Virus record (IMG/VR): IMGVR_UViG_2724679140_000004
Location: 1-21,580 of that record
Reading direction: 5' to 3' (one strand)
Length of the DNA: 21,580 nt
Source of the DNA: a virus
Taxonomy: Duplodnaviria; Heunggongvirae; Uroviricota; Caudoviricetes
The notes beneath the pieces are model-generated. The model made no database searches. It was given only the letters and a program-made list of their open reading frames with translations, and was not told where the DNA came from. The number at the start of each line of letters is the position of its first letter. Position 1 is the stretch's first letter. The position numbers were made by a program, and so were the translations under genes. This document shows, in pieces, positions 15,314 to 15,960 of this stretch.

Positions 15314-15466
15314 CTATTCAGATTTGCGCAGTAAAGGCAGGAGGACGACCAGCGCCATTGCCACCAGCACACCATCTGCCAGCACCGACATCAGCCGTCC
15401 GATGAAATCCACCACCACTACCAGAAACAGCAGGATGGCAGCCAGTACAAGGCGCGCACTTTTCAC
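15314..15466 (-). CDS. Unlisted small ORF: 50-aa two-helix membrane protein coupled to the TerB-like gene
   Basis: GTG at 15466-15464 overlaps the TGA of the upstream gene (GTGA). My translation: MKSARLVLAAILLFLVVVVDFIGRLMSVLADGVLVAMALVVLLPLLRKSE. Host-like CTG/GTG/GCG codon usage; the antisense frame is Ser/Thr-rich. Below the 60-aa cut-off of the ORF track. Confidence 0.45.
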   Translation of the reverse strand: MKSARLVLAAILLFLVVVVDFIGRLMSVLADGVLVAMALVVLLPLLRKSE

Positions 15467-15960
15467 AGATACTGCTCCAGCGGTAACTGCAGCGCCTGAG
15501 CAATTTTCTTGAGCTGCGCTTCTTCATCCGGACCAATGCCGTCCTGGTCTGCGATATCCAGACACAGGCACAGCACATTAACTGCATCATCAGTACCTGC
15601 AACATCAGCCAGCTGACGAAGGGCTTCGGCATTGGCAGAACGCGGTGACGCTTCATAACGGGCGCGGATATTGACGCTCATCTGGGCAATCTCACCGGAG
15701 AACGGCGCAAAGGCAGGAAGTGCTGCAATGGTTTTCTCCAGTACCACGATTTCTTTCGCGTCACAGGTGTCGTCAGCGTAAGCAATGGAATACGCACCCC
15801 AGACGGTCGCCTCCACTGCATCGCGGTTCTCCATTTTCTTTACTTCAGTAATGGCCTTGCGGGTTTTCTTTTTTGAAAATACCAAACATCGTGACGTTTC
15901 CTTTTGGTGGATGAGCCTTCGCCCGGGAGGCCAGCCCACAGAAAAAGTCACACTGACCAT
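15463..15960 (-). CDS. TerB-like domain protein (putative)
   Basis: The C-terminal half (...LCLCLDIADQDGIGPDEEAQLKKIAQALQLPLEQYL) resembles the TerB fold signature as I recall it. Start is uncertain: ATG at 15960 (165 aa) or 15834 (123 aa). Confidence 0.5.
   Translation of the reverse strand: MVSVTFSVGWPPGRRLIHQKETSRCLVFSKKKTRKAITEVKKMENRDAVEATVWGAYSIAYADDTCDAKEIVVLEKTIAALPAFAPFSGEIAQMSVNIRARYEASPRSANAEALRQLADVAGTDDAVNVLCLCLDIADQDGIGPDEEAQLKKIAQALQLPLEQYL

Follow-up and report, generated by a model that had tools for sequence, protein, structure and literature searches.

A decaying P1-type tciA-tciB cassette between the antiterminator and lysis genes of a lambdoid prophage

The window analysed here, the whole stretch of 21,580 nucleotides that forms positions 1 to 21,580 of IMG/VR virus record IMGVR_UViG_2724679140_000004 (Caudoviricetes), carries directly upstream of its lysis genes two small overlapping genes: tciA, a TerB-family pseudogene of 427 nt (15463-15889, with its ATG at 15889-15887), and tciB (15314-15466), which encodes a hydrophobic DUF3927 protein of 50 amino acids. 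The gene order was read off near-identical Escherichia coli genomes, and all the relevant genes lie on the minus strand, as do the cassette features, terminators, RNA matches, and tRNA-like remnant described below. A first-pass annotation, made from the sequence alone, had taken the pair for an undescribed phage function and its 50-amino-acid open reading frame (ORF) for an unlisted one. Neither view held. The pair corresponds to tciA and tciB of phage P1 (GenBank AF234173), to PHROG 632 and 1470, and to the Pfam families TerB and DUF3927, and the small ORF matches DUF3927 (PF13064) with 50.3 bits against a cut-off of 25, and is annotated as 'DUF3927 family protein' by the Prokaryotic Genome Annotation Pipeline (PGAP) and RefSeq in hundreds of genomes. 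TciA matches PHROG 632 'tellurite resistance' with an expectation value (E) of 2.6e-64, TciB matches PHROG 1470 'TciB-like' with E 3.4e-22, and RefSeq gives the gene order as 'TerB family protein', 'DUF3927 family protein', 'putative holin'. It is practically certain that the locus is a copy of the known, annotated cassette of the P1 tciA-tciB type. What the window carries is a decaying member of a common prophage accessory cassette that was known and annotated before.

Both ORFs on which the first-pass annotation was built exist (15463-15960 and 15314-15466), but the longer one is not the gene, as the true start of tciA is at 15889 and the copy is frameshifted. Intact homologues are 141 amino acids long, with the N-terminus MFGIFKKKTRK, and start at an ATG equivalent to 15889-15887. 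In an alignment with the intact homologue of E. coli UMNK88, which has a run of five adenines (A5), the window has six (A6, 15874-15869). This homopolymer at 15869-15874 is the site of a +1 frameshift located after codon 7: the true tciA frame reads MFGIFKKENPQGHY and then TGA (15847-15845), and translation ends after 14 codons. The 165-amino-acid ORF that had been taken for the gene is the post-frameshift frame, open by chance back to an ATG at 15960, and its part at 15890-15960 is a non-coding leader. It belongs to a conserved leader of the cassette (15890-16017), which includes an AGGA ribosome-binding site; the homology of most related loci begins at about 16017. The gene of E. coli IGC_RcoliRes_1.1, a 99.9%-identical copy of 427 nt, bears the PGAP label 'tellurite resistance TerB family protein, frameshifted'. 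Since all close intact copies scored have A5 (82/82) and all 80 viral-contig relatives encode full-length TciA, the A6 run, which is confined to the window and its 99.9%-identical relative, is a derived lesion rather than a recoding site. A programmed frameshift at the A-run was ruled out by the same counts.

Independent tciA frameshifts were found at other positions in other genomes (P0124, P0128, P0168, P0215, P0226, P0227, P0228). Several independent ones fall within the 5' A-rich stretch that carries the lesion of the window, and these too are called as 165-amino-acid ORFs from the upstream ATG; others lie near the 3' end. Judging from these sequences, tciA appears to decay repeatedly in prophages.

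The tciB gene of the window is open, but the conserved DFT(G/S) motif of its product is altered by T22I (codon 15403-15401). Almost every other copy has Thr at this position, and Ile22 was found only in the window and in the near-identical IGC strain. Of the core DFT(G/S)...S..L.DG..V...P, window TciB has D20, F21, S27, D31, G32, and P44, with Ile in place of the conserved Thr. The tciA frameshift together with T22I suggests that the unit in the window is decaying, and this copy is probably inactive. One could suppose instead that it is still functional, through either of two routes, both of which would preserve the coupling to the intact tciB frame. An in-frame ATG (Met19 of the intact protein, 15834-15832) lies 10 nt past the premature stop and opens a residual TerB-domain ORF (15463-15834), at which translation would re-initiate; its product scores 24.3 bits with Pfam TerB, just below the cut-off of 24.4. 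In the AlphaFold2 (AF2) model the whole folded domain comes after residue 21, so that, hypothetically, a start at Met19 would yield the entire domain minus the conserved basic N-terminal peptide. Alternatively, a +1 slip of tRNA-Lys on AAA-AAA-G would restore the exact wild-type protein, with the MFGIFKKKTRK N-terminus as read from the sequence. However, as A6 is derived, there is no conserved recoding site, the 18 N-terminal residues lost on re-initiation are strongly conserved, and no good Shine-Dalgarno sequence precedes Met19. As tciB itself carries T22I and independent frameshifts elsewhere are typical of prophage decay, rescue of the window copy by either route is unlikely.

The proposed TerB-like nature of TciA was borne out by a profile check against PF05099, which gave 27.0 bits for the window ORF and 31.3 bits for the intact homologue (cut-off 24.4), by agreement of a fold search, and by a Pfam TerB match in 23/23 aligned family members. 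However, the domain is not confined to the C-terminal half, as had been thought: the whole protein is one TerB-like domain. Its AF2 model has six helices (predicted local distance difference test score, pLDDT, 87) and, by fold comparison, a TerB-like all-helical fold. The residues D39-G40...E46 and D111...D114...G117 are invariant in 23 TciA homologues, and D116 is nearly so; the two acidic Asp-Gly loops that they form sit in loops of the model, between helix pairs. Among solved structures only chance matches were obtained, both with the single sequence and with a 23-sequence profile, and NCBIfam gave only sub-threshold matches, such as a weak match to DjlA (E 0.01, far below the cut-off). Faint matches to DUF533 were found on distant TciA relatives.

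The tciA stop and the tciB start overlap in the GTGA at 15466-15463 (15463-15466 as a feature), and a Shine-Dalgarno sequence, GGAG (15478-15475, the feature at 15475-15478), stands 8 nt before the GTG and is conserved among the locus junctions compared. Because the GTG overlaps the tciA stop and has GGAG upstream, tciA and tciB are translationally coupled, as had been proposed for a small membrane-protein partner. The expected conservation of the junction was found as well, with GTGA in 91/95 loci and TGATG in P1-type loci, where the ATG start aligns with the tciB GTG. So was the expected synonymous bias of the small ORF: its pairwise ratio of nonsynonymous to synonymous differences (pN/pS) is 0.43 in frame, where the other two reading frames give 0.84 and 0.94. 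For tciA it is 0.09, indicating a stronger constraint than on tciB. A DUF3927 profile search of 1.84 billion representative proteins recovered 91 representatives, nearly all of them stand-alone proteins of 40-90 amino acids, and the distant DUF3927 genes that were checked directly follow a TerB gene of 142-148 amino acids, either overlapping it or no more than 3 nt away (6/6). Taken together, the conserved GTGA, the frame constraint, and the distant pairings indicate, at the level of sequence, that TerB-DUF3927 is an obligate two-gene unit, in temperate and virulent phages and in phage-plasmids alike.

The cassette is widespread. Sequence matching the region occurs in 697/5,426 complete E. coli genomes, and the cassette matches 669 plasmid records (655 of them non-mobilizable). 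The plasmid records listed are mostly about 90-115 kb long, a size shared by P1-like and SSU5/pKpn-like phage-plasmids. Klebsiella and Salmonella phages have the pair as well, and so do the N4-like virulent phage FSL SP-076 and contigs where it lies beside tail genes or beside a T7-type RNA polymerase. Clusters of phage tRNA genes often accompany tciAB, for example in L002, P1 (L003), phage JLK-2012 (L097), and L108. Same-strand tRNA genes lie within 2.5 kb upstream of it in 56/81 loci; tRNAs flank the pair in P1 and are directly downstream of it in a distant phage contig. One distant TerB-DUF3927 pair (L099, 1-8162) belongs to a variable region of a chromosome, where it has SbcCD-like genes (SMC_N and Metallophos) and an AIPR gene next to it, and the sister contigs L100 and L101 carry H-NS and a sensor kinase on the side where L099 has the SbcCD-like and AIPR genes.

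Our statements on the P1 operon, which comprises tciA, tciB, and tciC, rest on the annotation of GenBank AF234173 (NC_005856) and on later papers. P1 TciA has 85% protein identity to the intact E. coli homologue (UMNK88), and the TciB proteins of P1 and the window, members of the same family, DUF3927, are 47% identical. In both the window and P1, tciA precedes tciB with an overlapping stop and start, near phage tRNA genes, and the pair consists of dispensable accessory genes. They differ in the junction (TGATG in P1, GTGA in the window), in the third small gene, tciC, which has no equivalent in the window, and in the frameshift of the window tciA. Moreover, the P1 pair belongs to the C1-controlled ban operon, whereas the window pair occupies the slot between Q and the lysis genes of a lambdoid prophage. 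The names tciA and tciB in P1 derive from homology only. All three tci genes were found to be non-essential in P1 by CRISPR interference (PMC10695390), and roughly every second phage-plasmid examined from P1 subgroup 1 has lost the operon (PMC9603915).

The slot itself is the one that carries stx in Shiga-toxin phages, as the first-pass annotation had recognized. In the Stx2e phage phiP27, Q is followed by three genes, tRNA-Ile, tRNA-Arg, stxA2e, stxB2e, and the holin-holin-endolysin cassette, so that the toxin genes lie between the tRNAs and the same lysis cassette as in the window. From 15408 on, midway through tciB, phiP27 is again homologous to the window, with 91% identity through the lysis genes, and it keeps a frameshifted 3' tciB remnant and the terminator that follows it. 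As homology resumes mid-tciB and a 3' remnant is left, the sequences indicate that in the phiP27 lineage stx2e took the place of tciA and of the 5' portion of tciB. The stx2e cassette and the window pair thus share a slot downstream of Q and the tRNAs and upstream of the same lysis genes, ending at the same terminator; the phiP27 cargo is unrelated to tciAB. In phage JLK-2012, with the order Q, tRNAs, tciA, tciB, a nanS-like gene, S, and R, the slot holds the nanS-like gene in addition. These comparisons place the window pair in the cargo ('moron') position of a phiP27/HK97-like lambdoid prophage, with the Q antiterminator on one side and the lysis genes on the other. In phiP27 an annotated 'hypothetical protein L27' (minus strand, 4817-5014 of locus L096) opposes and overlaps the start of the 3' tciB remnant, and may not be a real gene.

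The terminators that had been described on both sides of the pair were found again as hairpins with T-runs. The upstream intrinsic-terminator-like element (16201-16230) has a stem at 16230-16211, with 8 pairs, 5 of them GC, a loop of 4, and the tail TTTGTATGAG; the downstream one (15234-15259, stem 15259-15244) is the terminator kept in phiP27. A scan for terminators gave 15 terminator-like sites against 3.0 expected from shuffles, and a strict consensus scan for sigma-70-like promoters gave none in 14800-17200 against 2.6 expected from shuffles. With no promoter found, a terminator upstream, and Q further upstream, the pair is probably transcribed by Q-antiterminated late transcription along with the lysis genes. 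In P1 the pair lies, according to the GenBank annotation, in the ban operon behind C1 operators, and tci transcripts were detected during P1vir infection. Because the ban operon is repressed by C1 in P1 and transcription is probably late here, the pair would be made during lytic development in both the lambdoid and the P1 setting, as well as in virulent phages.

The holin-holin-endolysin cassette directly follows the pair in the window, as had been noted at the outset, and a Phage_holin_8 gene lies 23-226 nt downstream in 67/98 loci that have both genes. On the strength of this position directly upstream of a holin, of the probable co-transcription with the lysis genes, and of the hydropathy of TciB, which marks it as a small membrane protein, TciA and TciB could be an antiholin-like or holin-modulating pair that times lysis by the Phage_holin_8/Phage_holin_3 cassette. 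However, the functional tie to the holin that had been suspected does not hold across loci. In 27/94 loci with enough flank another gene is downstream, the alternatives being an S21-type holin, DUF1737/NanS-like genes, a signal-arrest-release (SAR)-type lysozyme, or P1 ban, so that the adjacency tracks the cargo slot and not the holin type. No holin is adjacent in P1, where the pair is in the ban operon beside the helicase gene, in FSL SP-076, or in the six distant loci, and phiP27 retains the same lysis cassette without tciAB. Moreover, DUF3927 was the sole match of TciB in Pfam, with no holin family among the matches, and the gap of 94 nt between tciB and the holin of the window contains the downstream terminator. 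Since the downstream genes vary so much among the loci, their comparison indicates that holin adjacency is a property of the lambdoid cargo slot, with no conserved functional linkage. We infer that tciAB has no specific partnership with the adjacent holin, and consider a role of the pair in lysis timing very improbable.

The product names in P1 and RefSeq, repeated by reviews that draw the analogy to terB for the tci genes, and the membership of TciA in the TerB domain family would fit with a pair that by itself confers tellurite and/or colicin resistance on the lysogenic host. TciA and the TerB of terZABCDEF operons (PF05099) belong to the same domain family and share the helical fold and the two acidic DG loops. 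Nevertheless, the names come from homology only, and the minimal tellurite-resistance unit is TerC-TerD, according to work cited in PMC12054061, while no terC or terD was near any locus examined. The pair is also probably in lytic-phase transcription units, and such a lysogenic-conversion function is quite improbable. In the ter system a TerC-TerB complex has been proposed as the core (PMC12054061), and TerB is thought to act at the membrane with TerC (PMC12054061); the partner of TciA is instead a DUF3927 protein of 50 amino acids and not the multi-pass TerC.

A further possibility is that the pair benefits the lysogen as an anti-phage defence, by abortive infection or superinfection exclusion, in analogy to the phage inhibition by ter operons. 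Operons of this type that contain terB have been implicated in phage inhibition and colicin resistance (PMC9603915; PMC12054061), the slot is a known cargo (moron) position, and one chromosomal locus places the pair beside an AIPR abortive-infection-type gene and SbcCD-like genes. However, the abortive-infection module suggested by the first-pass annotation found no backing in PADLOC-DB 2.0, in which neither TciA nor TciB matched any family, even at E up to 1. No promoter for expression in the lysogen was detected in the strict consensus scan, and a terminator lies upstream. Moreover, carriers of the virulent type (N4-like FSL SP-076 and the contig with the T7-type RNA polymerase) make abortive suicide unlikely, although the exclusion of competitors would still be possible. 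On balance, we regard the defence function as improbable.

The explanation that fits best, with a probability of roughly 0.6, is that the locus is an accessory cassette of the P1 tciA-tciB type, decaying here, which encodes a membrane-associated TerB module made during lytic growth. In the mechanism that we propose, TciB would anchor or partner the cytoplasmic TerB domain of TciA at the inner membrane in trans; this partnering is a tentative proposal, to which we give somewhat less than even odds. Fusions of TerB-like domains to membrane anchors are recurrent, DjlA and YebE/DUF533 being examples. These proteins hold a cytoplasmic TerB-like domain and a transmembrane anchor in one chain, which tciAB splits into coupled genes, and the pair could be a split version of such DjlA/YebE-type membrane-anchored proteins and an analogue of the TerB-TerC pairing; TciA lacks a J domain, unlike DjlA, and the likeness is at the level of the domain family only. 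TciB has a mean Kyte-Doolittle hydropathy of 1.7, with two hydrophobic cores separated by the polar centre DFTGRLMSVLADG, which contains two conserved Asp, and with basic residues at both termini. The hydropathy and the basic termini fit an N-in/C-in hairpin, as read from the sequence. Functionally, the pair would be a dispensable module that modulates the physiology of the infected cell with regard to its envelope, ions, or membrane stress. The ter operons suggest phenotypes such as colicin tolerance, inhibition of other phages, and tellurite tolerance, but by this analogy any specific phenotype of tciAB is unlikely at best.

Several points weigh against this explanation. The two hydropathy cores of TciB (residues 6-19 and 33-46) make the two hydrophobic helices of the first-pass annotation plausible, but at about 14 residues each they are short, and AF2 gives a single continuous helix instead (residues 4-49, 46 residues, pLDDT 92). 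Candidate TerB-DUF3927 fusions, which could have served as evidence for interaction, were rejected: P0171 (196 amino acids, one contig) is a P1-type indel fusion, and P0254, P0264, and P0272 seem to be chimeric or frameshift calls. With no credible natural TciA-TciB fusion among the sequences, it is the gene coupling only that points to a physical interaction. No terC, terD, terE, or terZ occurs around the loci examined, whether by annotation or by gene calling, and since no ter gene is nearby, the phenotypes of ter operons may not transfer to the pair. The consensus scan for promoters is crude, and the conserved leader may yet contain one that is weak or of a non-sigma-70 type. The literature that could be searched gave no experiment on either gene, and the copy in the window may have no activity whatever.

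The remainder of the window is organized as a lambdoid prophage. At its edge lie a sok antisense RNA (21399-21573; Rfam, 115 bits) and a hok-type toxin ORF (21249-21461), whose counterpart in a near-identical genome is annotated hokD, followed by a DUF968 gene (19461-20510), rusA (19074-19448), and the Q-type antiterminator gene (18256-19077). Just downstream of the Q gene there is a match to the STnc100 small RNA (17437-17650; Rfam, 109 bits against a gathering score of 47), and an iraM-like fragment lies between this match and the upstream terminator-like hairpins, of which the further upstream one is at 16423-16400. On the other side of the pair, the first gene of the lysis cassette, which is part of the context and not of the module, encodes the Phage_holin_8 holin (14827-15219); it is followed by a Phage_holin_3_7 holin and an M15 endolysin, and, beyond the endolysin, by an HNH endonuclease, a P27-type small terminase, and HK97-type head genes. 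An ORF of 182 amino acids at 14827-15375 is the holin frame run upstream across the terminator into tciB; the annotated holin start is at 15219. The guanine-plus-cytosine (GC) content of the pair (0.55-0.56, and 0.54-0.65 at third codon positions, GC3) resembles that of the adjacent lysis genes and exceeds the window mean of 0.51.

An inverted repeat with a 7-bp stem (TCTCTCTCCTCCAGAGAGA) at 16100-16118, in an AT-rich stretch upstream of the cassette, falls between the points where the homology of related loci starts (about 16187 and 16017). Further upstream, at about 16250-16332, there is a degenerate tRNA-like remnant with the T-loop motif GGTTCGAGTCC, which is equivalent to 5913-5994 of the UMNK88 locus (L002). 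At this homologous position in UMNK88, ARAGORN calls a tRNA-Val-like gene and PGAP annotates none; in the window, neither ARAGORN nor Rfam called any tRNA gene. E. coli IGC_RcoliRes_1.1 carries ISEc12, an insertion sequence of the IS21 family, between Q and the cassette (L001, 4448-7028), whereas the window is without it by BLAST. The 8 nt at 17215-17222 border ISEc12 on both sides in that strain, consistent with a target-site duplication. Apart from ISEc12, the two differ at 2/10,023 bases, at 16995 and at 15454, the latter giving R5C in tciB.

The phiP27 comparison documents an exchange of cargo in the Shiga-toxin slot, in which stx2e displaced tciAB. That a very common phage pair bears product names resting wholly on homology to terB is a real annotation gap, and the strict TerB-DUF3927 pairing leads to a testable hypothesis, with DUF3927 as the membrane partner of the TerB domain. 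It is possible, although on present grounds rather unlikely, that TerB-DUF3927 is an obligate two-component membrane module of the lytic phase in lambdoid phages, P1-like and SSU5-like phage-plasmids, N4-like phages, and phages of the T7-RNA-polymerase type, and that it acts on the physiology of the envelope or of ions in the infected cell. If this were true, the label 'tellurite resistance' would be a misnomer for a widespread phage function, and the module might exclude competing phages or colicins, or stabilize the membrane until lysis.

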